From an uncultured Buttiauxella sp. (GTDB taxonomy: Bacteria; Pseudomonadota; Gammaproteobacteria; Enterobacterales; Enterobacteriaceae): a stretch of 40,000 nucleotides of DNA. The notes beneath the pieces are model-generated. The model saw only the letters and a program-made list of their open reading frames with translations, did not search any database and was not told where the DNA came from. The DNA is taken from the NCBI GenBank assembly GCA_946480445.1, contig CAMLJN010000001.1, positions 113,352-153,351 of the forward strand, read 5' to 3'. Positions 4,587 to 37,618 of this stretch are shown piece by piece (positions within the stretch are counted from its first letter, which is position 1; every line of letters begins with the position of its first letter). The position numbers and the translations under genes were made by a program.

Positions 4587-6023
<1,437 letters not shown>

Positions 6024-18969: not shown

Positions 18970-19154
18970 ATTTCTCTGAGATGTTTGCAAGCGGGCCAGT
19001 CCCCTGAGCCGATATTTCATACCACAAGAATGTGGTGCTCCACCGTCGGTGAGCATGCTCGGTCCGTCCGAGAAGCCTGATGACAGTGACGCTGCATTCA
19101 CCTTGAACCAAGGGTTCAAGGGTTACAGCCTGCGGCGGCATCTCGGAGATTCCC
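18970..19154 (+). ncRNA. ssrS: 6S RNA
   Basis: atttctctgagatgtt.gcaagcgggccagtcccctgagccgatatttcataccacaagaatgtgg ... ggttacagcctgcggcggcatctcggagattccc matches the E. coli 6S RNA sequence I recall, apart from the central variable region. It sits in the conserved zapA-ssrS-fau context. Confidence 0.93.
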
Positions 19155-22174: not shown

Positions 22175-23074
22175 ATGAAACGCCCGGACTACAGAACACT
22201 ACAGGCGCTGGATGCGGTTATTCGTGAACGAGGATTTGAGCGCGCGGCGCAAAAGCTCTGCATCACTCAATCCGCAGTGTCACAGCGCATTAAGCAACTG
22301 GAAAACATGTTCGGCCAGCCATTGTTAGTTCGCACTGTCCCCCCTCGTCCAACGGAGCAGGGGCAGAAACTGCTGGCTCTGCTTCGCCAGGTGGAGCTGC
22401 TGGAAGAGGAGTGGCTGGGTGATGAACAAATCGGCTCCACGCCGCTGCTGCTGTCGCTGGCGGTGAACGCCGACAGTCTGGCCACTTGGCTGCTGCCTGC
22501 GCTGGCCCCGGTGCTGGCCGACTCCCCTATTCGCCTGAATCTTCAGGTTGAAGACGAAACCCGGACGCAGGAACGCCTGCGTCGTGGCGAAGTGGTGGGA
22601 GCGGTATCTATTCAACCACAGCCGCTGCCCAGCTGCCTCGTCGATCGTTTAGGCGCGCTGGACTATCTTTTTGTGGGATCAAAAGAGTTTGCCGCCCGCT
22701 ATTTTCCGAATGGCGTGACGCGCTCCGCACTGCTGAAAGCCCCCGCCGTGGCCTTCGACCACCTGGACGATATGCATCAGGCTTTTTTGCAGCAGAACTT
22801 TGATTTATCTCCCGGCAGCGTGCCCTGCCATATCGTTAACTCTTCGGAAGCCTTTGTGCAGCTGGCTCGTCAGGGAACAACGTGCTGTATGATCCCGCAC
22901 CTGCAAATCGAAAGAGAGCTCAATAGCGGCGAGCTTATCGACCTGACGCCGGGTCTGATGCAAAGACGTATGCTCTACTGGCACCGGTTTGCGCCGGAAA
23001 GCCGCATGATGCGCAACGTCACGGACGCGCTGCTGGAATATGGACACCGAGTGTTACGCCAGGACGCCGAATAG
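22175..23074 (+). CDS. argP: LysR-family regulator ArgP (IciA)
   Basis: The ATG at 22175 gives [43 protein letters not shown]..., 299 aa. Confidence 0.96.
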
Positions 23075-23075
23075 C

Positions 23076-23106
23076 AAAAAGCCCGCTTTCTAAGCGGGCT
23101 TTTATT
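23076..23106 (+). terminator. argP intrinsic terminator (copy 1 of a duplicated hairpin)
   Basis: caaaa-agcccgctt-tct-aagcgggct-tttt. An A-tract lies upstream and a T-tract downstream, immediately after the argP stop. Confidence 0.8.
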
Positions 23107-23242
23107 GCTAACAAAGAAGGAAAAAGCGTGGTTTTTCCTTCTTTGACGTTAGCTGCCGAAAATCAACAAATTGATTTTCCTTATTTTTTTATTGGGCGAT
23201 CTCTGCTTGTCCTGCATGAAGACAGGGCTCGCCATCAGTCTG
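23104..23242 (+). repeat. MITE-like intergenic unit, copy A (two-hairpin core 23111-23181 plus a less conserved tail)
   Basis: Hairpin 1 is caaagaaggaaaaa-gcgtgg-tttttccttctttg (23112-23145). Hairpin 2 is gaaaatcaa-caaa-ttgattttc (23158-23179). The unit is homologous to the reverse complement of 37452-37593. Confidence 0.7.
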
Positions 23243-23265
23243 AGCCCGCTTAAAAGCGGGCTTTT
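23243..23265 (+). terminator. second copy of the argP-type terminator hairpin
   Basis: agcccgctt-aa-aagcgggct-tttt is identical to 23080-23103 except for the loop. It is oriented for plus-strand termination and has no U-tract on the yggE strand. Confidence 0.6.
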
Positions 23266-23293
23266 CCAGTTGAAAACGCCTTATCCCAACTGC

Positions 23294-25931: not shown

Positions 25932-26327
25932 TTACCAGCAGTCCAGATGTGAGGCGATAGCCTCTATCTCAAGCTTCACGTCTTTGGGCAAGCGGGCGAC
26001 CTGCACACAGCTGCGGGCAGGATAGCTGGCTTCATGCTCATCGAAAAACTGCTTATAGGTCTGATTTATCGCCTCAAAATCTTTTAAATCGGTGACAAAC
26101 ACCGTCGTTTTGATGATGTTACCTACTTCCAGACCCGCAGCCTGAATGATGGCCTTCACGTTTTCCAGGCTTAAACGCGTTTGCTCGATCACCTTTTCAG
26201 GAATGACGCCCGTTTGCGGATCAACCGGTATTTGTCCTGATGTAAAGACCAGCTTGCCAAGATCGACACCCTGCACGTAAGGGCCAATAGCCCCCGGCGC
26301 CCTTTTCGTTTCGATAATATGACTCAT
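25932..26327 (-). CDS. tdcF: RidA-family enamine/imine deaminase TdcF
   Basis: The ATG at 26327 gives MSHIIETKRAPGAIGPYVQGVDLGKLVFTSGQIPV..., 131 aa, collinear with E. coli TdcF. Confidence 0.93.
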   Translation of the reverse strand: MSHIIETKRAPGAIGPYVQGVDLGKLVFTSGQIPVDPQTGVIPEKVIEQTRLSLENVKAIIQAAGLEVGNIIKTTVFVTDLKDFEAINQTYKQFFDEHEASYPARSCVQVARLPKDVKLEIEAIASHLDCW

Positions 26328-26340
26328 ATTGCCTCGCAAA

Positions 26341-28635
26341 TTAAATCGCCTGCGTGAAAGTACGGGAGATAACATCCTGCTGCTGCTCACGCGTTAACGC
26401 ATTGAAGCGAACCGCATAACCGGAGACGCGGATTGTCAGCGTCGGATACTTTTCCGGGTGCTCAATGGCATCCAGCAGCATCTCTTTGTTCATCACGTTG
26501 ACATTCAGATGCTGCCCGCCTTCGGTTTTCACATCGTGGTGGAAATAGCCGTCTAATAGCCCCACCAGATTGAGCTGGCGCACGGCATCCTCTCTCCCTA
26601 ATGCCGCAGGGACAATGGAGAAAGTGTAGGAAATACCGTCTTTTGCGTAGCTAAACGGCAGTTTTGCCACCGAGGTTAAAGAGGCCACCGCGCCTTTGCG
26701 ATCCCTGCCATGCATCGGGTTCGCACCCGGTGCAAAAGGTGTCCCGCCCCGACGGCCGTCCGGGGTGTTACCCGTTTTTTTGCCGTATACCACGTTCGAG
26801 GTGATCGTCAGGATCGACTGCGTAGGCACCGCATTGCGATAGGTTGGCAGCGCCTGGATCTTTTTCATAAAGCGCTCGACCAGATCGCAGGCAATCGCAT
26901 CGACGCGATCGTCGTTATTCCCGTACTGCGGATAATCACCCTCAATCACAAAATCTACGGCCAGCCCGGTATGATCGCGCACCGGTTTAACGGTGGCGTA
27001 TTTAATGGCGGAAAGTGAGTCAACGGCCACCGACAGCCCGGCAATCCCGCAGGCCATGGTGCGATAGACATCCCGGTCGTGCAGCGCCATCAGCGACGCC
27101 TCATAGCTGTATTTATCGTGCATATAGTGGATGAGGTTCAGCGCGGTGACATACTGCATCGCCAGCCAGTCCATAAAGTGGTCCAGGCTGTTCATGACCT
27201 TGTCGTAATCCAGCACTTCATCGAGCAGCATCGGCGTTTTTGGCCCGACCTGAATATTGAGCTTTTCATCCATCCCGCCGTTGATGCAATACAGCAGCGT
27301 TTTCGCGAGGTTTGCGCGGGCGCCAAAGAACTGCATTTGTTTGCCGATCACCATCGGGCTCACGCAGCAGGCTATTGCGTAGTCATCGCTGTTAAAGTCG
27401 CAGCGCATCAGATCGTCATTTTCATACTGCAACGACGAGGTTTCGATGGAAACTTTGGCCGCAAAGACTTTGAACGGCTTAGGCAAGGCTTCCGACCAGA
27501 GGATCGTTAAATTTGGCTCCGGTGCCGGCCCCATAGTGTAGAGCGTATTCAGGTAGCGGAAGGCGTTTTTGGTCACCAGCGTTCGCCCGTCCAGCCCCAT
27601 GCCGCCGATCACTTCCGTCGCCCAGATAGGATCGCCCGAGAAGAGCGAATCGAACTCCGGCGTACGCAGGAAGCGCACCATACGGATCTTCATGATGAAG
27701 TGATCGACCAGCTCCTGCGCCTGCTCTTCGGTCAGTAGCCCTGCCCGCAGATCGCGTTCAATGTAAATATCAATAAATGTCGTCGTGCGTCCCAGAGACA
27801 TCGCGCCGCCATTTTGCGATTTCACCGCGGCGAGATAGGCAAAATAGAGCCATTGCAGCGCTTCCTGGGCGTTACGCGCCGGGCGAGAAATATCAAAGCC
27901 GTAGCGGGCTGCCATTTCCTGAATTTGCAGCAGCGCCCTGCGATGCTCGGCAAGCTCCTCACGCAGTCGAATCACGGCATCCAGATTTTCTCCCCGCTCC
28001 AGCTGGCCTTGCAGGTCGGCAAACTGAAGTTCACGCTCGCGCACCAGATACGCAATACCGTACAGCGCCACGCGCCGGTAATCACCAATAATGCGTCCGC
28101 GGCCATAGCCATCAGGCAGACCGGTCAGCACGCCTGATTTACGGCAGCGCAGAATATCCGGAGAATAAACGTCGAAGACGCCCTGGTTGTGCGTCTTGCG
28201 CAGCGAAGTAAACTGATACTCAAACGCCGGATCCATCTCGCGACCATAAGCTTCAAACGAGCTTTTGATCATGTTGATACCGCCATAAGGGTGCAGAGCA
28301 CGCTTAAGCGGTTTATCCGTCTGCAGGCCGACAATCTTCTCGTGTGCTTTGATTATATAGCCCGGCGCGTGCGCGGTAATGGTGGTGGCAATATTCGTAT
28401 CGAAGTCCACCGGCGCATGGGTGGCGTTTTCAAGACGAATGCCCTCCATCACTTTTTCCCACAATGCGGTGGTCGCAGGCGTCGCGGTGGCTAAAAATGA
28501 CTCATCGCCGCAATAAGGCGTATAGTTATGCTGGATAAAATCCCGAACGTTAATGTCGTATTTCCATTCCTCACCGGAAAATTGCTGCCAGGCAAGAGAA
28601 TAATCTTCGTTGGTAATATCAATATCCACTTTCAT
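26341..28635 (-). CDS. tdcE: 2-ketobutyrate formate-lyase / pyruvate formate-lyase 4 (glycyl radical enzyme)
   Basis: The ATG at 28635 gives [19 protein letters not shown]..., 764 aa as in E. coli TdcE. The glycyl radical motif RVSGYAV lies near the C-terminus. Confidence 0.96.
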
Positions 28636-28665
28636 TACTTCTGTCCTCTGAACCACATTAATATT

Positions 28666-29874
28666 TCAGGCATATTCCGCGAGGCGGCATTCTTTCCCGA
28701 TATGCAGGGCATCAAGCGCAATCATTTTCTCTTCATTGGTGGGAATAACTGCGCAAACGACCGAGGAGTGAGCATCAGAAATTATTCTTTCCCCTACCCG
28801 GTTGCTCTGACTATTTTTGTCCCGATCGAGATAAATGCCAAAAACCCGCAGACGTTCAACCACCAGACGTCTGATAAGCTGCGAATTTTCGCCAATACCA
28901 CCGGTAAAAATAACGCCATCCAGACGTAATAACGCCGCCGCGTGTCCCCCAATCGTCCGGGCGATTCGGTGGACAAACGTATTAATAGCAAGCTGCGCGC
29001 GAGGCTCACCTTGATGCCAGGCTTTTTCCAGCGTCCTTAAATCTGACGATATGCCTGAAATCCCCAGCAGGCCAGATTCTTTATTCGCCACCTGTTCGAG
29101 ATCATCGAGTGATTGCCCCGTTTGTCGGGCAAGCCACGCCATGGCGCCAAAATCCACGTCGCCGCAGCGGGTGCCCATGATCAGACCTTCAAGCGGCGTC
29201 ATCCCCATCGACGTATCGACGCTCTTGCCGTTTTGCACCGCGCAAACGGAAGCACCATTGCCTAAGTGAGCAATCACCAACCCTGAATGTTCCGCGCAAA
29301 GGCCAAGCAAATCATTGGCACGCTGCGCCACATAGCGATGCGACGTGCCGTGGAAGCCATAGCGACGCACGCCGTAGTCTTCGAAGTAGCGGTAGGGTAA
29401 ACCGTACAGATACGCCTCCGGTTTTAATGTCTGATGAAAGCTGGTATCAAACACGGCTACCTGAGGGACATGCGGAAAACGCGCGCGTGCGGATTCAACG
29501 CCGCTTAAATTGGCGTAGTTATGCAGCGGTGCCAGAGGCGATACCTGCCGGATCTGTTCGATGACCTGGTCGGTAATTAAAACTGACTCTTTAAATACCT
29601 CACCGCCATGTGCTATGCGGTGTCCAATAAAAGCCACGCTGGCCATTAAGTCTCTTTTCTCAAGCTCAATGGAAAGCGCATTCAGTGCATCTTCATAATT
29701 TGGCTGAGCCAGTTTAACTGGCTCACCCTCATTAATGGTTAAATATGCGACCTCAGTATTAATACCTTCACAAATACCCGCCAAAAGCACATCGCAGGTT
29801 TGGACATCCAGAACTGAGAACTTAACAGAAGAAGATCCACAGTTTATCGTTAATACTACAGGGTAGTCATTCAT
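28666..29874 (-). CDS. tdcD: propionate kinase
   Basis: The 402-aa [26 protein letters not shown]... belongs to the acetate/propionate kinase family. It has the same length as E. coli TdcD. Confidence 0.95.
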
Positions 29875-29911
29875 ATCTAAATCTCATTCATCCTGAGCCA
29901 GCCCGGGAAAA

Positions 29912-31243
29912 TTAAAATAACTTGTAGACAATATTAAGAATGGTTAACACACCAATGACGGTGACAAAAATATTTTCCGTGCGTCCTTTATATTTCGCTA
30001 AGGCCGGCACTTTACGAATCGCGTACATCGGGAGCAGGCAAAGCAGCGAGGCGATAATTGGCGCGCCCATCGCTTCAATCAAATCCAGAATGTTCGGGTT
30101 AGCGTAGGCGACAATCCAGGTCGATCCCATGATGAAAGCCATGCTAATGAGGTTTAGCTTCCCGCCGGAAACACGGGTTTTATCGCCCTGGTAACCAAAC
30201 TTAAGAATCAGACCATTAAGCCCTTCCAGCGTCCCGAGATAGTGACCAAAGAAGGATTTGAAGATGGCGACCAGCGCGATTATTGATGCGCCGTATTCGA
30301 GGATAGTGGCAAAGGTCGATTTCGAACCGGACATCGACGAGAAATGGTTAGCCAGATAGGAAAGCACCGGGATGTTCTGCGCTTTTGCCTCGGCCATGTT
30401 TTGCGGAGAAAGCGTAAACAGGCAGCTGAAGGCGAAAAACATCACTACGGCCACCATCAACATGCTGGCACGGGAGATAATCTTTGAGACTTTGTTCTCG
30501 GTGTAGGCTTTGCCAAATTCTCCCTCGTACTCTTCACGCTTGGACACCACGAATGACGATACGATTGGCGAGAAGTTAAACGAGAACACCATAATAGAAA
30601 TGCCCAACCAGACCGTAACCAGAATACCGTCGTGACCGGTAAAGGAGAGATCGCTGAGGCTGACCTGATCGATAACCGCGGAGTTCCAGTAAGGGATCAG
30701 CGACAGCGAGATCAGCACCAGACAGGCGATAAAAGGAAACACCAGATAGCTCATGACCTTGACCATCAGATCCTTACCGAAGAAGATCACAAAGGCCATC
30801 AGCAGGAGTAAAAAGAGCGCCACAAAACCCCGGTTCAGGGGCATTAGCTGCAGCTGATTTTCCCAGAAGGTCATAAAGGTGTTGGTAATGGTCACGCCGT
30901 AAATCCACAGCAGCGGGCAAATCGCAAAAAAGTACAGGAAGGTGATGACCACCCCGCCGGTTTTACCGAAATGCTCTTCCACCGTTTCAGTAATGTTTCC
31001 TGAAGGGTTGCTGCCGGACAGACAAAGACGCGCCAGGGCGCGGTGGCAGTAAAACGCTATCGGAAAGGCCAGAAACAGCATAATTAAAATTGGAATTAAG
31101 CCGCCGTAACCTGCACGAATGGGGAAGAACAATACCCCGGCGCCGATAGCTGTACCAAACAGACCGAGCGTCCAGGTGGTGTCTGATTTACGCCACAGCG
31201 ACGTCTCTTTCTGACCAACGAGTGTTGCATCTGTATTGCTCAT
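29912..31243 (-). CDS. tdcC: threonine/serine:H+ symporter
   Basis: The 443-aa ORF is highly similar to E. coli TdcC ([29 protein letters not shown]...). Confidence 0.96.
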
Positions 31244-31267
31244 AATATAGGTCCTTAAGTAATTAGC

Positions 31268-32257
31268 TTAAATTTCCACAGAGCCGGTAATTTGCGAGAC
31301 GCGCGAAAGGTCGATATTCCCGCCGGAGATAATACTTACCGTTTTACGGCCTTTAATATAGCTATCAAGTTTGCCACTCAGTAAAGCCGCGGTGGCCAGA
31401 GCGCCAGCACCTTCCGTCACCACTTTATTACGCTGAATGAGCGCCACCATGCTGTTTCTGATCTCTTCTTCACTGACCAAAATAATATCAGTCACCAGAT
31501 CCCTGACGATGTCGAAAGTGATTTTTCCCGGACGTGAAACATCACAACCGTCTGCCAACGTACCCGCCGTACGATGCGATATTAATTCTCCGGCATGGAA
31601 TGATGCGGCCATGCCGTGCACATTCTCAGCCTGCACGCCAATAATATTAATCGTCGGATTGATGGATTTAATCGCCAGCGCGACACCGGCAATTAAACCA
31701 CCGCCGCCGATTGGCACAATAACGTTATCGACATCATATAAATCCTCCAGGATCTCCAGCCCGATAGTGCCCTGCCCGGCAATCACTTTTTCATCATCAT
31801 AAGGGGGAATAAAGATGCGCCCTTCCGTTTCGACAATTTCGCTGACCTTTGCAATGGTATCGTTGAAGTTATCCCCGTGCAGCACGACCTGGGCTGAGTA
31901 ATCCATGGTTGCCGCGACCTTGGACTTAGGTGCCCCTTTGGGCATCACAACCAGACCGTCAATCCCCAGAATGGCACAGGAGAGCGAAACGCCCTGCGCG
32001 TGGTTACCCGCAGAACAGGCTACCACGCCCTTTCTTTTTTCTGCTTCGCTTAACGAGCTGAGCTTGTTAAATGCGCCACGAATTTTAAAGGAGCCGGTGC
32101 GCTGCATATTTTCAAATTTCAAAAATATCTCACCCTTGCAGCATTCACTGAGATAGTTAGAGCGCGGCATCCCTGTTTTATAAATATAACCAGCCAGTCT
32201 TTTTTTAGCTTCCAGAATATCCTCAATGGTAACCGGAAGTTCATAATCAATATGCAT
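31268..32257 (-). CDS. tdcB: catabolic (biodegradative) threonine dehydratase
   Basis: The 329-aa ORF has the PLP-lysine motif TGSFKIRGA. It is collinear with E. coli TdcB. Confidence 0.96.
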
Positions 32258-32357
32258 GTTGACCTCGGTGTTAAAACAATAAGCAATAAAGGGGGGGGCA
32301 AATTATTTTTATTTGCCGTTAGCATTCATTTAAATATATTTAAAGCCAATTATTAAA

Positions 32358-33296
32358 TTAAGCGACTCTGGTAAGCTTGTTAAACTTATATTGGCTGCGT
32401 ACCGAATGTTTTTTAGCCAGTTCGACCAGGGTCGCGGCAGATCTTTTAATACAATAATTTTTCGACCATGCCGCCGCATAACGAGCAACGGGTAATTTAT
32501 CTTCTACCGGAACTTTACAAAACTGACTGGAGCCAAAGGGAGAAATCATATCGCCTGGAATAACCGTCAGAAATCCTGCATTCAGCACCAGGTTATAAAT
32601 GGTGACCACCGAGTCCGTTTTAATGATATTTTCACTGTTGATATTATTCTTTTGTAACGTGGTAAGCAGCTCGCTGTAATATCCCATCTCGGTATGTGGT
32701 AGCACCCACTGCTCGTGGCTTAGGGCGCTGAGCGTTGTCGTACCGCCGCAGGATCGCGTTCGGCTGGCGACCAGAATAAATTCGGACTCAAACAGCGGCT
32801 CAATATGCAGATCCTGGAGCAGCATTTCATCGCTAAGCGTGCCGATGGCAAAATCCAGCCGCCCATCGCGAATCGCAGGTAAGAATGAAGAAAGCTGCGC
32901 TTCGAACATCGAAACCTGCGCCTGGGGGAAAAGCTCCTTAAACTCTTTCATCATGTCCGGCAAAAAGGTGAAGCCAATTAATGAAGGGTAGCCAAAGGAG
33001 ACATCGACCACATCGTTCCCCACCATGCTGCTCATCTCGTTGCACATATTTCTTAACTCGCGGGTAATGGACTCCGAGTGGGTCAGCAATACCTTTCCTG
33101 CTTCCGTCAGCTTCACGCCCGTGTTCTTACGTATGATCAGCGCTAATCCAAAGTAGGTTTCCATATCGCTGATAATTTTACTGACCGCAGGCTGAGTTAA
33201 ACCAAGTTGTTTTGCCGCAGAGCCAAATGAACCGCTTCTGACGACTTCCAGGAAGACCATCAGATGCTGTGTTTTAGGTAACGTTGTATTGTCCAT
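32358..33296 (-). CDS. tdcA: LysR-family activator of the tdc operon
   Basis: The 312-aa ORF ...LPKTQHLMVFLEVVRSGSFGSAAKQLGLTQPAVSKII... is collinear with E. coli TdcA. It is the first gene of the operon. Confidence 0.93.
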   Translation of the reverse strand: MDNTTLPKTQHLMVFLEVVRSGSFGSAAKQLGLTQPAVSKIISDMETYFGLALIIRKNTGVKLTEAGKVLLTHSESITRELRNMCNEMSSMVGNDVVDVSFGYPSLIGFTFLPDMMKEFKELFPQAQVSMFEAQLSSFLPAIRDGRLDFAIGTLSDEMLLQDLHIEPLFESEFILVASRTRSCGGTTTLSALSHEQWVLPHTEMGYYSELLTTLQKNNINSENIIKTDSVVTIYNLVLNAGFLTVIPGDMISPFGSSQFCKVPVEDKLPVARYAAAWSKNYCIKRSAATLVELAKKHSVRSQYKFNKLTRVA

Positions 33297-37423: not shown

Positions 37424-37448
37424 AAAAAAAAGGTCGCTTTCGCGACCC
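37424..37448 (-). terminator. strong intrinsic terminator, probably the functional tktA terminator (distal copy of a duplicated hairpin)
   Basis: The minus strand reads ggtcgc-gaaa-gcgacc followed by T8 (A8 at 37424-37431 on the plus strand). Confidence 0.8.
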
Positions 37449-37451
37449 GTT

Positions 37452-37593
37452 CTGAATGATTTTTACTCTGACACAATCTTACGGCACAAATGTCGCCCTG
37501 ATTAATCAGGAAAATCAATTTTTTTGATTTTCGACAGCTCAATCACAATGAAGGAAAAACCACGTTTTTTCCTTCATTGTCTGTAGCATAACG
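37452..37593 (-). repeat. MITE-like intergenic unit, copy B (two-hairpin core 37508-37580)
   Basis: On the minus strand, hairpin 1 is acaatgaaggaaaaa-acgtgg-tttttccttcattgt (37545-37580). Hairpin 2 is gaaaatcaa-aaaaa-ttgattttc (37510-37532). It also has a perfect 14-bp palindrome CCTGATTAATCAGG (37497-37510). Confidence 0.7.
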
Positions 37594-37618
37594 GGTCGCT
37601 TTCGCGACCCGTTATGCT
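37585..37618 (-). other. 15-bp perfect hairpin directly 3' of tktA (proximal copy of the duplicated hairpin; no U-tract)
   Basis: agcataacgggtcgc-tttc-gcgacccgttatgct contains the same 20-mer ggtcgctttcgcgacccgtt found at 37432-37451. Confidence 0.7.

Follow-up and report, generated by a model that had tools for sequence, protein, structure and literature searches.

A duplicated terminator hairpin between argP and yggE as the very probable footprint of a YPAL-type MITE

Miniature elements and insertion sequences at hairpin targets

The miniature insertion sequences called YPAL or RU-2 were reportedly described by De Gregorio et al. in 2006 (J Bacteriol 188:7876). They have also been treated by Delihas (2007, 2008), and a Yersinia pestis YPAL/RU-2 sequence is printed in PMC2759123. 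YPAL duplications of 3-26 bp are reported to span dyad symmetries, and YPAL is reported to be co-transcribed with the upstream gene, possibly affecting the stability of that transcript (PMC2229807). A third family with the same ends, beside YPAL/RU-2 and the one described here, appears as 'rohdei5' in a supplement of PMC2847712. YPAL-type MITEs have been known since 2006, and no transposase is named for them in the literature we searched.

Long target duplications and hairpin targets are each on record for larger elements. In the IS1202 family, which encodes a TnsB-like transposase and has 5'-TGT...ACA-3' ends, the duplications measure 16-28 bp, with a length that is fixed for each IS (Harmer, Pong & Hall 2023, PMC10132070). 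IS1272/TnSha1, of the IS1182 family, is reported to target terminator hairpins whatever their sequence (Furi et al. 2016, PMC4923244); it is the sole member of that family whose targets are described in the literature searched, and it reportedly deletes part of the hairpin rather than duplicating it (PMC4923244). Here we report that a pair of near-identical hairpins between argP and yggE is very probably the target-site duplication of a ~140-bp MITE, one likely mobilised by an enzyme of the IS1182 family.

The argP–yggE spacer and the element within it

In the window, the whole 40-kb stretch of DNA that was analysed, argP ends on reading of the sequence with a TAG stop codon at 23072-23074, and the hairpin pair follows on the plus strand. 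The argP-proximal copy (copy 1, 23080..23103, AGCCCGCTT-tct-AAGCGGGCTTTT), which would stem from an original bidirectional intrinsic terminator hairpin, retains an upstream A-tract, caaaa, that gives a U-tract on the minus strand. The yggE-proximal terminator hairpin (copy 2, 23243..23265, AGCCCGCTT-aa-AAGCGGGCTTTT) retains a downstream T run, tttt, for plus-strand transcripts. The original prediction described this pair accurately: on re-reading, agcccgctt..aagcgggctttt is found at both 23080-23103 and 23243-23265, the copies start 163 nt apart with 139 nt (23104-23242) between them, they differ in the loop only, and no T-tract accompanies copy 2 on the minus strand, which reads ...aagcgggctCAGACTG. 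It had also stated, correctly, that E. coli carries scpA-meaB(argK)-scpB-scpC-srsR(ygfI) between argP and yggE. For the element itself E. coli gives no comparison, because blastn against 5,426 complete E. coli genomes returned no match.

The duplication is far beyond chance. A fixed-loop hairpin pattern matched copy 1 alone, once per strand as befits a palindrome, and had no match in 100 dinucleotide-preserving shuffles, and local alignment of the two flanks of the site returned the hairpin pair at a distance of 139. A simple terminator scan called neither copy.

The argP–yggE spacer exists in two states among relatives. Contigs L124-L128 and L131, which encode an identical ArgP at ~88% DNA identity, have a single hairpin, AAAAAGCCCGCTT-aaatata-AAAGCGGGCTTTATTTT, and no two-hairpin core; relative to the window, this empty site lacks exactly the 139 nt plus one hairpin. 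Contigs L133 and L137, at 99.9-100% identity to the window, are filled; over the length that they cover, the shorter contigs L129, L130 and L132 agree with the filled allele. The loop differs among all three versions of the argP hairpin (tct, aa and aaatata). Because filled and empty sites exist, the latter in relatives of ~88% DNA identity that belong to another lineage than the window, sequence comparison shows the MITE to be mobile. The original prediction had proposed comparing this spacer among relatives in search of a site with one terminator; relatives without the core carry one hairpin rather than both. Its reading of the unit as an insertion with target-site duplication is thereby borne out, given the identical ArgP beside the single-hairpin site. 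A further suggestion, that the unit is an argP read-through transcript ended by copy 2, stands as a plausible consequence of the insertion and leaves the duplication unexplained.

The 139 nt between the hairpins (23104..23242, plus strand) are a non-autonomous MITE of a ~140-bp family with YPAL-type termini, recognised by full-length alignment with 69 other copies, by nhmmer and consensus comparisons and by its absence from the empty-site relatives. All its parts are given on the plus strand. The left terminal inverted repeat (ATTGCTAACAAAG, 23104..23116) has diverged from xAGATTGCTGACAAAG to the point that its outermost 3 nt can no longer be recognised, and the stem of subterminal hairpin 1 (acaaagaaggaaaaa-gcgtgg-tttttccttctttg, 23111..23145), predicted by folding, starts within it; 8 of the 12 pairs of this hairpin show double compensatory changes among 70 copies. 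Hairpin 2 (GAAAATCAA-caaa-TTGATTTTCC, 23158..23180) is better conserved than any other block of the family, among copies that were mostly retrieved with hairpin 2 as the probe, a procedure that biases both its invariance and the copy numbers, which are minima. In three independent by-catch copies hairpin 2 has one substitution or one extra loop base. On both strands it fits the IHF consensus WATCAANNNNTTR, and it is a putative IHF site. A variable tail (23195..23233), subfamily-specific in the alignment, is predicted to fold into a subterminal hairpin (ggcga...tcgcc) beside the right end. The right terminal inverted repeat (TCGCCATCAGTCTG, 23229..23242) has its nearest counterpart in GGGGGTCGCCAGCAGTCTG, the right end of the Salmonella IS1182-family element in L160 (CAGACTGATGGCGAGCCC against CAGACTGCTGGCGACCCC in the end comparison). 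Both terminal inverted repeats at the argP site have diverged from the family consensus, the element has no coding capacity, and no transposase gene lies within the 40-kb window.

The tktA–epd spacer holds a second, more diverged copy of 142 nt on the minus strand (37452..37593; nhmmer E = 2.8e-21), with a duplicated hairpin of its own that is different from the one at argP. The upstream copy of this tktA terminator hairpin (aacgggtcgcgaaagcgacc, 37594..37613, minus strand) is followed by no T-tract, and the downstream copy (37432..37451, minus strand) is followed by T8 and is terminator-like by scan. No empty site was found here among contigs encoding an identical Epd, all of which (5/5) are filled. 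The ends and loops of both copies in the window have diverged, which marks these copies as old and probably no longer mobile.

The dispersed family, its probable IS1182-family partners and the alternatives

In 1 Mb of fetched loci the MITE family amounts to over 100 copies, spread among at least 13 named Enterobacterales genera, Providencia, Morganella, Serratia, Klebsiella, Scandinavium, Dryocola, Mangrovibacter, Buttiauxella and Cedecea among others, and at least 20 of the loci come from the single genome of Scandinavium sp. SGZ-S8. The terminal inverted repeats of the family are xAGAYTGCTGACAAAG...CTTTGTCATCAGTCTx, the 15-16-nt termini of a 70-copy alignment read xAGATTGCTGACAAAG...GGTTTGTCATCAGTCTx, and the modal length between the repeated hairpins is 139-141 nt. 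About 75 of the 87 analysable copies lie between direct repeats of a GC-rich hairpin of 16-29 nt that is local and specific to the locus, and the longest exact word common to the two flanks of a copy has a median length of 17 nt, as against 7 nt for mismatched flank pairs; a local, hairpin-sized duplication is thus shown at nearly every copy. Size statistics were taken from the 73 copies with repeats of at most 31 nt, out of 76 that pass the alignment filters. The duplication ranges over 16-30 nt, with a mean of 22.5 and an sd of 2.6; in 49 of the 73 its symmetry about the dyad holds to within 1 nt, and in 54 its start lies 0-2 nt beyond the outermost G:C pair. A co-oriented ORF stops no more than 150 nt upstream in 53/76 copies, at a median distance of ~17 nt, and the reconstructed target sites are A-rich on the 5' side and T-rich on the 3' side. 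The bracketing hairpins are intrinsic terminators.

The family has the properties of a MITE (terminal inverted repeats, target-derived direct repeats, presence/absence polymorphism, and a small, multicopy form with no transposase gene) together with those of the YPAL-type group (CAGACTGCTGACAAA-type termini and a variable duplication over a dyad near a stop codon). The terminal inverted repeats, the YPAL-type membership and the ends held in common with IS1182-family elements go beyond the original prediction. The published de novo repeat set of Yersinia does not include the family, and a literal search of paper text for the element's sequence motifs gave no match. At L077, L035 and L091, hairpin-element units form tandem arrays. 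Several fetched contigs end inside the element, short-read assemblies being broken by these repeats.

A full-length element was not found among the MITE copies that have no second hairpin nearby, which are either truncated or diverged in their hairpins, nor among all inverted-repeat matches in the 1 Mb of fetched loci. A blastn search of PLSDB plasmids with the element and with the family consensus returned no IS, only MITE copies on mis-labelled chromosome fragments. Elements of 1572-1599 bp with the same termini as the MITE are present at L160, L164, L156 and L165. Direct whole-hairpin duplications bracket the elements at L160 (20 nt), L164 (25 nt) and L156 (18 nt). The element at L165 adjoins a 21-nt hairpin of the same kind, its two flanks being inverted copies of each other, and at L161 the hairpins at the two ends are unlike, with no duplication. 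At 452 aa the L165 transposase is intact, and its score against NF033551, 'IS1182 family transposase', is 496.9 bits where the cut-off is 270; the partner transposase comprises Pfam DUF772 and DDE_Tnp_1_6. Partner copies have the same outer 15 nt as the MITE and, in the same position as its hairpin 1, an analogous subterminal hairpin. Over 24 nt, identity to an IS end is 15/24 for the MITE left end, with the first 15 identical, 18/24 for the MITE right end and 22/24 for the YPAL left end. Common ends and a common footprint point to an IS1182-family transposase as the likely driver of the MITE.

Some other enzyme could instead have inserted the MITE and duplicated the target, with the common ends arising by convergence or capture. 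We consider this improbable. It would accommodate the match of only 15-18/24 terminal bases between MITE family and IS copies, a window that holds no IS1182-family gene and the report that IS1272 deletes rather than duplicates (PMC4923244), but it leaves aside three independent IS copies (L156, L160, L164) with the identical, unusual whole-hairpin footprint, the hairpin of the same kind at L165, the outer 15 nt and the position of the subterminal hairpin common to all partner IS, and the 22/24 agreement of YPAL with one IS end.

It is a shade less probable again that a dedicated RNA module, either a 3'UTR-derived sRNA or a tandem-terminator device, evolved in place and that the second hairpin was selected as its own terminator. 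The argP–yggE region does fold much better than shuffles (z = -8.0), hairpin 1 carries its compensatory changes, in tandem-gene contexts the MITE mostly has the orientation of the upstream gene (17 vs 7), and co-transcription of YPAL with the upstream gene, with a possible effect on stability, has been reported (PMC2229807). However, the downstream hairpin is always a copy of the local upstream one, which differs between loci, and evolution in place cannot yield local hairpin copies at more than 70 loci. The terminal inverted repeats, the filled and empty sites and the full-length IS with the same ends and footprint show mobility instead. Nor does any Rfam family match: Rfam 15, searched at gathering and permissive thresholds with the window and a well-preserved copy, returned none, and the best sub-threshold match, STnc370 at 31.8-33.9 bits against a threshold of 54, is at chance level. 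An RNA role of the MITE can only be secondary, an exaptation.

That the terminator was duplicated locally, in tandem or by replication slippage, with ordinary spacer DNA in between, is very unlikely. Direct repeats 163 nt apart are formally the footprint of a tandem duplication, and tandem arrays do occur at L077, L035 and L091, but the 139 nt do not copy the sequence beside them and are a dispersed repeat found at unrelated loci in at least 13 genera; these dispersed copies and the empty site, without exactly the 139 nt plus one hairpin, refute it. The same reading, put forward in the original prediction, is excluded by the presence of the core at more than 100 unrelated loci, each with its own local hairpin. 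That the bracketing hairpins are borne by the element and travel with it, in the manner of IS200/IS605 or REP/RAYT, is hardly credible: hairpin-bounded elements exist and the direct orientation is that of IS608 ends, but the hairpins differ at every locus and are identical within a locus, the empty site keeps one copy, and IS200/IS605-type elements make no target duplication.

Several known sources were also considered for the element. Elements of IS200/IS605 or REP/RAYT type were rejected on the locus-specific flanking hairpins and the one copy left in the empty site. The IS1202 family was rejected on the MITE ends, xAGAYTG.../...CARTCTx, and the IS1182-type partner transposase. Cas1/casposase-like repeat duplication, group IIC introns, integron attC recombination and IS200/IS605 peel-and-paste were dropped in view of the terminal inverted repeats and the DDE partner. 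The MITE ends resemble the Himar1 mariner repeat, and this candidate was rejected because the duplication is not TA.

A proposed split terminator and the place of the MITE among known elements

If the pair is a target-site duplication, the ancestral argP/yggE spacer would have contained one bidirectional intrinsic terminator, in which a GC stem-loop lay between an A-tract and a T-tract. The MITE, non-coding and ~140 bp long, is bounded by 15-16-nt terminal inverted repeats and has a hairpin just inside either end as well as an AT-rich palindrome that is conserved; it would have inserted into this terminator, mobilised in trans by an IS1182-family DDE transposase. Two strand transfers on opposite sides of the stem-loop, ~23 bp apart and dyad-symmetric, followed by gap repair, would copy the whole hairpin to both flanks of the element. 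The choice of target would be structural, a palindrome or an extruded cruciform, rather than sequence-based. Because the duplications are whole-hairpin, dyad-symmetric and variable in length in the MITE family, in YPAL and in the IS1182-family partners, we tentatively suggest that the transposase may capture an extruded cruciform or hairpin and join the element ends to both strands at the base of the four-way junction. Were this somewhat doubtful proposal true, active sites with an ordinary short spacing would yet produce a duplication as long as the palindrome, and homing to terminators would be structure-guided and sequence-independent, a mode for which no IS family is known to have a biochemical description. 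The question of what moves YPAL-type repeats would then be settled.

Insertion would part the A-tract from the T-tract, so that the copy near a gene keeps only those T residues that lie inside the duplication, 4 in the argP case, and the whole tract stays with the far copy. Each of the two convergent genes would then be followed first by a hairpin parted from most of its U-tract, and the MITE is therefore probably part of the 3'UTR of both genes through read-through, in sense for argP and in antisense for yggE. The 4 T residues left behind copy 1 make read-through there uncertain, and the scan called neither copy.

The odd terminator pair at argP can thus be explained as a transposon footprint, and annotators should not take the second hairpin for a terminator in its own right, for an orphan one or for the gene of an sRNA. 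More broadly, the MITE family appears to re-wire 3' ends, turning a bidirectional terminator into two copies with half a tract each and placing ~140 nt of structured sequence with a putative IHF-like site between them. Dozens of genes in a single genome would be affected in this way, and many Enterobacterales would be concerned, among them Klebsiella, Providencia, Morganella and Serratia. A connection with the IS1182 family supplies a concrete candidate enzyme for YPAL-type MITEs, and the MITE and its IS1182-family partner offer a natural system for the study of structure-directed target choice.

Among known systems, the IS1182-family elements share with the MITE the terminal inverted repeat, the adjoining subterminal hairpin, insertion at terminator hairpins and, in three copies, direct whole-hairpin duplication. 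An example is the 1587-bp copy on Salmonella plasmid CP053580.1, with the intact transposase QJY60899.1 encoded at 90514-91872 of the plasmid; Photorhabdus relatives are annotated IS1668. These elements are 1.57-1.60 kb long and encode a DDE transposase, whereas the element in the window is non-coding and has the ends alone in common with them. IS1272/TnSha1 of staphylococci likewise shows structure-directed insertion into terminator hairpins with no primary-sequence consensus, but it reportedly cuts bluntly within the stem, deletes part of the hairpin and makes no target duplication (PMC4923244), while the MITE leaves the hairpin intact and duplicated. IS1202 elements resemble the MITE in their unusually long target duplications, but no palindromic target is reported for them (PMC10132070). 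Correia/NEMIS elements of Neisseria and ERIC are also MITEs of 100-160 bp that lie in gene-proximal spacers and are co-transcribed; Correia elements have an IHF site in the core, and the RNA hairpins of Correia/NEMIS and ERIC influence mRNA fate. They differ in duplicating TA rather than a hairpin, in their unrelated ends and in having no terminator targeting.

The closest likeness is to YPAL/RU-2 of Yersinia, in which the outer 15-16 nt agree with those of the MITE (CAGACTGCTGACAAA...TTTGTCA..CTC), insertion falls just 3' of stop codons with duplications of variable length across dyads, and the element is non-coding with predicted co-transcription with the upstream gene. Three YPAL copies that we fetched have whole-hairpin duplications of 19-22 nt. 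The MITE does not belong to the YPAL/RU-2 family proper: against its 167-168-nt consensus only the terminal 15-16 nt align, the interior is unrelated, the lengths are 140 nt and 168 nt, and YPAL has neither hairpin 1 nor the GAAAATCAA..TTGATTTTCC palindrome of the MITE family. The MITE is clearly a further member of the already known YPAL-type kind, and in that respect an essentially ordinary case.

The duplicated hairpin between argP and yggE

The argP stop codon (window 23072-23074) is followed by caaaa-AGCCCGCTT-tct-AAGCGGGCTTTT, whose hairpin, copy 1, spans 23080-23103. Copy 2 (23243-23265) has identical arms and a 2-nt loop, and the 139 nt separating the copies (23104-23242) are the non-coding MITE. 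The coordinates, the 163-nt spacing and the confinement of the difference to the loop are as the original prediction gave them. A fixed-loop pattern search matched copy 1 only, with 0 matches in 100 shuffles, and the pair was recovered by flank-to-flank alignment. Just 3′ of copy 2, at ~23275-23286, lies aacgccttatcc, which resembles the enterobacterial REP core.

Contigs encoding exactly the window’s ArgP fall into two groups. Among those 99.7-100% identical to the window, two (L133, L137) span the spacer in a 219-nt filled form and three (L129, L130, L132) agree with that filled allele over the part they cover. In the group with ~88% identity (L124-L128, L131), the element is absent and the ~100-nt spacer has one hairpin, AAAAAGCCCGCTT-aaatata-AAAGCGGGCTTTATTTT, which has tracts on both sides and therefore serves argP and yggE, which converge on it, as a bidirectional terminator. 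A longer REP-like stretch is present in these relatives at the place corresponding to window ~23275-23286. An empty site with one terminator had been proposed as the check for insertion with target-site duplication, and that reading is correct, with the empty site coming from a relative at ~88% identity to the window; no identical-ArgP contig lacking the core carries both hairpins. The suggestion that the unit is a 3′UTR or sRNA-like transcript made by read-through does not explain its origin but describes a likely consequence of the insertion, and local tandem duplication is wrong.

On the argP side, copy 1 keeps only TTTTATT. On the yggE side, the proximal copy 2 has no minus-strand T-tract, as had been noted originally, and copy 1 has TTTTTG because it retained the upstream A-tract. 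A simple terminator scan called neither copy a terminator. Judged from these reduced tracts at the proximal copies, the element is probably transcribed as part of both the argP and the yggE 3′UTR. In the very stable predicted MFE fold of the RNA from 23072-23275 (-86.8 kcal/mol, z = -8.0), copies 1 and 2 pair in a ~24-bp long-range helix enclosing three internal hairpins, a structure that would form at the expense of the two local terminator hairpins.

A window repeat search found a second MITE copy with its own duplicated hairpin on the minus strand at 37432-37613, in the tktA-epd spacer. Here aacgggtcgcgaaagcgacc directly follows the tktA stop, the core comes next, and aacgggtcgcgaaagcgacc (20 nt) then recurs, followed by a T8 that stands behind the distal hairpin copy only. 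The hairpin differs from that at argP, and the layout is the same. This site was filled in all five near-identical contigs found, so that among them no empty site was seen. Divergence of the ends and loops marks both window copies as old. Three short-read contigs identical to the window (L129, L135, L136) end inside the element, and the repeat therefore breaks assemblies.

Elsewhere in the window, mscS and fbaA are separated by a ~7.4-kb block at 25932-33296 with six ORFs of 152-771 aa; this block is not known from E. coli, where the compared region ends inside mscS. This block, the missing scpA-srsR block and the epd/tktA adjacency indicate that the region has been rearranged between genera. 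The 6S RNA gene (ssrS, 18970-19153, 129.6 bits) is in its conserved zapA-ssrS-ygfA context.

Distribution and anatomy of the 140-nt family

By blastn, the core follows a chaC-like gene in Klebsiella pneumoniae, yidA in K. aerogenes and proA in Providencia alcalifaciens, each time with a local hairpin repeated on its two sides; 5,426 E. coli genomes gave no match. A scan of species-representative genomes with the conserved palindrome GAAAATCAA(N3-4)TTGATTTTCC gave at least 119 loci. About 100 of the 119 matches listed are true MITE copies, and the genera among them are Providencia, Morganella, Serratia, Cedecea, Scandinavium, Dryocola, Mangrovibacter, Buttiauxella, Tenebrionibacter, Enterobacter, Citrobacter, Rosenbergiella and Entomohabitans. 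This set was gathered with hairpin 2, an internal hairpin of the family, as probe, and the counts below are among the matches listed.

The two repeats lie 139-141 nt apart in 52 of 75 clean copies. An alignment of 70 copies (A2) gives the consensus xAGATTGCTGACAAAGAAGGAAAAAGCGTGGTTTTTCCTTCTTTGTGGTTATCAGCCGAAAATCAATAAATTGATTTTCCTTGTTTTTTATT..GGTGACA..(variable)..AGGTTTGTCATCAGTCTx, whose two ends are mutually inverted repeats, making the unit a MITE. The outermost bases of the two ends do not complement each other but are identical (C...C in 17 and G...G in 8 of 62 clean copies from L005-L123; C...C also in the YPAL copies L144 and L146), so the inverted repeat really begins one base in (AGAYTG...CARTCT). 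Hairpin 1, which starts within the left terminal repeat, shows double compensatory changes at 8 of its 12 pairs, one being, for example, A-U in 53 copies and C-G in 12. Hairpin 2 is invariant among the listed copies, but it was the search probe; three copies that were nhmmer by-catch have one substitution or one extra loop base in it. The IHF consensus is WATCAANNNNTTR, and hairpin 2 fits it on both strands as a putative site. The tail differs between subfamilies and folds into a third hairpin beside the right end. The element matched no Rfam family.

Terminator stem-loops as the target

The duplicated hairpin is target DNA; the element was mobile, and its target is the terminator stem-loop. 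Across 87 analysable listed copies, the median length of the longest exact word common to a copy’s two flanks is 17 nt, versus 7 nt for mismatched flank pairs, and ~75 of the 87 have a clear flanking direct repeat. Reconstructed empty sites resemble canonical intrinsic terminators, with a GC-rich stem-loop preceded by A-rich and followed by T-rich sequence. Co-oriented ORFs end within 150 nt upstream in 53 of 76 listed copies (median ~17 nt), and 27 sites lie between convergent genes; between tandem genes, the element shares the orientation of the upstream gene in 17 cases and is opposed to it in 7. The 9 nt after the hairpin hold on average 3.5 T at the upstream copy versus 6.0 at the downstream copy.

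In the 73 listed copies with repeats of up to 31 nt, the duplication is 16-30 nt long (mean 22.5, sd 2.6), with boundaries uncertain by 1-2 nt wherever element ends and flanks coincide. It is centred on the dyad, with left and right offsets equal in 28 of the 73 and within 1 nt in 49, and in 54 it begins 0-2 nt beyond the outermost G:C pair; the larger the GC stem-loop, the longer it tends to be (r = 0.54). We infer two strand transfers at the stem-loop base, on opposite strands. Attack at the base of an extruded cruciform, with a junction able to move through the A·T extension, would be expected to give duplications that are symmetric about the dyad, vary in length and reach a short and equal way into the A/T flanks on either side. 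Alternatively, a symmetric dimer may measure out ~22 bp of duplex DNA.

In a few cases the two flanking hairpin copies differ by an inverted loop (GCAGCTTGCTGC versus GCAGCAAGCTGC; TCT versus AGA; L068 ~4970-5140 and L021 ~2625-2815). Tandem hairpin-element-hairpin-element arrays occur at L077 3300-3960, L035 5650-5930 and L091 7440-7710, with up to four units, repeating every 160 nt, in Tenebrionibacter. Their inner units are nearly identical, and the arrays fit either repeated insertion into a duplicated hairpin or unequal recombination.

YPAL-type MITEs and IS1182-family elements

The 168-nt Y. pestis RU-2/YPAL sequence printed in Delihas 2007 (PMC2759123), with ends ttCAGACTGCTGACAAAcccc...cacTTTGTCAATAACCTCa, has the same termini as the 140-nt family and an unrelated interior. 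As relayed in Delihas 2008 (PMC2229807), De Gregorio et al. 2006 reported YPAL duplications of 3-26 bp across dyad symmetries, and co-transcription with upstream genes. We found AAACCGCCTTTATGGCGGTTT on both sides of a YPAL copy on a Y. similis IncFII plasmid (L144), AAGGATGGCCCAAGCCATCCTT on both sides of one in Y. pseudotuberculosis, and CAGGGGC..GCCCCTG on both sides of a 75%-identical relative on a K. quasipneumoniae IncN plasmid (L145). YPAL and this relative are also on 15 other conjugative plasmids (Yersinia, E. coli, Klebsiella, Citrobacter), and YPAL-type MITEs are therefore able to travel between genera. The supplementary repeat set of the Yersinia genus paper (PMC2847712, supplement file 20) contains a third family with these termini, ‘rohdei5’ (TCAGACTGCTGACAAAG...ATTTGTCATCAA; 129 nt, 65 copies in Y. 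rohdei), and ‘ruckeri0’, labelled there as an ERIC match and in fact YPAL-like. The 140-nt family is absent from that set, and no description of it was found in MITE reviews in the accessible literature; it looks like a hitherto undescribed family belonging to the YPAL-type group.

In viral contigs, TTCAGACTGCTGACAAA matched YPAL copies, one 140-nt-family copy and, in L156, a 1576-bp element with the same ends, flanked by the repeated hairpin AGGCGCATTTATGCGCYT and carrying frameshifted fragments of an IS1182-family transposase. The homologues are annotated ‘IS1182 family transposase’ (Serratia, Salmonella) and ‘transposase for IS1668’ (Photorhabdus). A 1572-bp copy after parB in Salmonella (L160) has duplicated AGGATGCCAAATGGCATCCT, with A6 before and T7 after, and a 1599-bp metagenomic copy (L164) has duplicated AAAGCCTGCTTTTAAAGCAGGCTTT; the Photorhabdus copy (L161) has a different hairpin at each end and so shows no duplication. 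A 1587-bp copy on the Salmonella IncF plasmid CP053580.1 (L165) abuts a 21-nt hairpin and encodes an intact transposase in a single 452-aa ORF (496.9 bits against NF033551, cut-off 270). In most full-length copies (L160, L161, L164, L156) the transposase is split (DUF772 ORF plus DDE ORF) or frameshifted, through either decay or programmed frameshifting. The flanks of the plasmid copy (L165 280-1910) repeat each other for 60 nt or more in inverted, not direct, orientation, which with the flanks at L068 and L021 suggests occasional inverted instead of direct duplication, or IS-mediated rearrangement. In ISfinder, IS1182-family direct repeats range from 0 to 60 bp.

These IS elements have ends and footprint in common with the MITE. 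Against the IS ends, YPAL is identical at 22 of 24 positions on the left and 18 of 24 on the right, and the MITE at 15 of 24 on the left, including all of the first 15, and 18 of 24 on the right; the window’s argP copy has the right end CAGACTGATGGCGAGCCC, for which the Salmonella IS end CAGACTGCTGGCGACCCC is the nearest match. As in hairpin 1 of the MITE, the IS ends have a hairpin beginning in the AAAG of the repeat. From the shared ends and footprint, an IS1182-family transposase is the likely driver of the MITE, which would be mobilised in trans. We did not find such a transposase stated as the driver of YPAL-type repeats in the accessible literature. Palindrome targeting by some members of the family is attributed to Siguier et al. 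2015 as cited in PMC4923244, and Furi et al. 2016 (PMC4923244) report that the terminator hairpins entered by IS1272/TnSha1, also of the IS1182 family, are not chosen by their sequence. Unlike the duplicated hairpins described here, part of the target hairpin is deleted when IS1272/TnSha1 inserts (PMC4923244).
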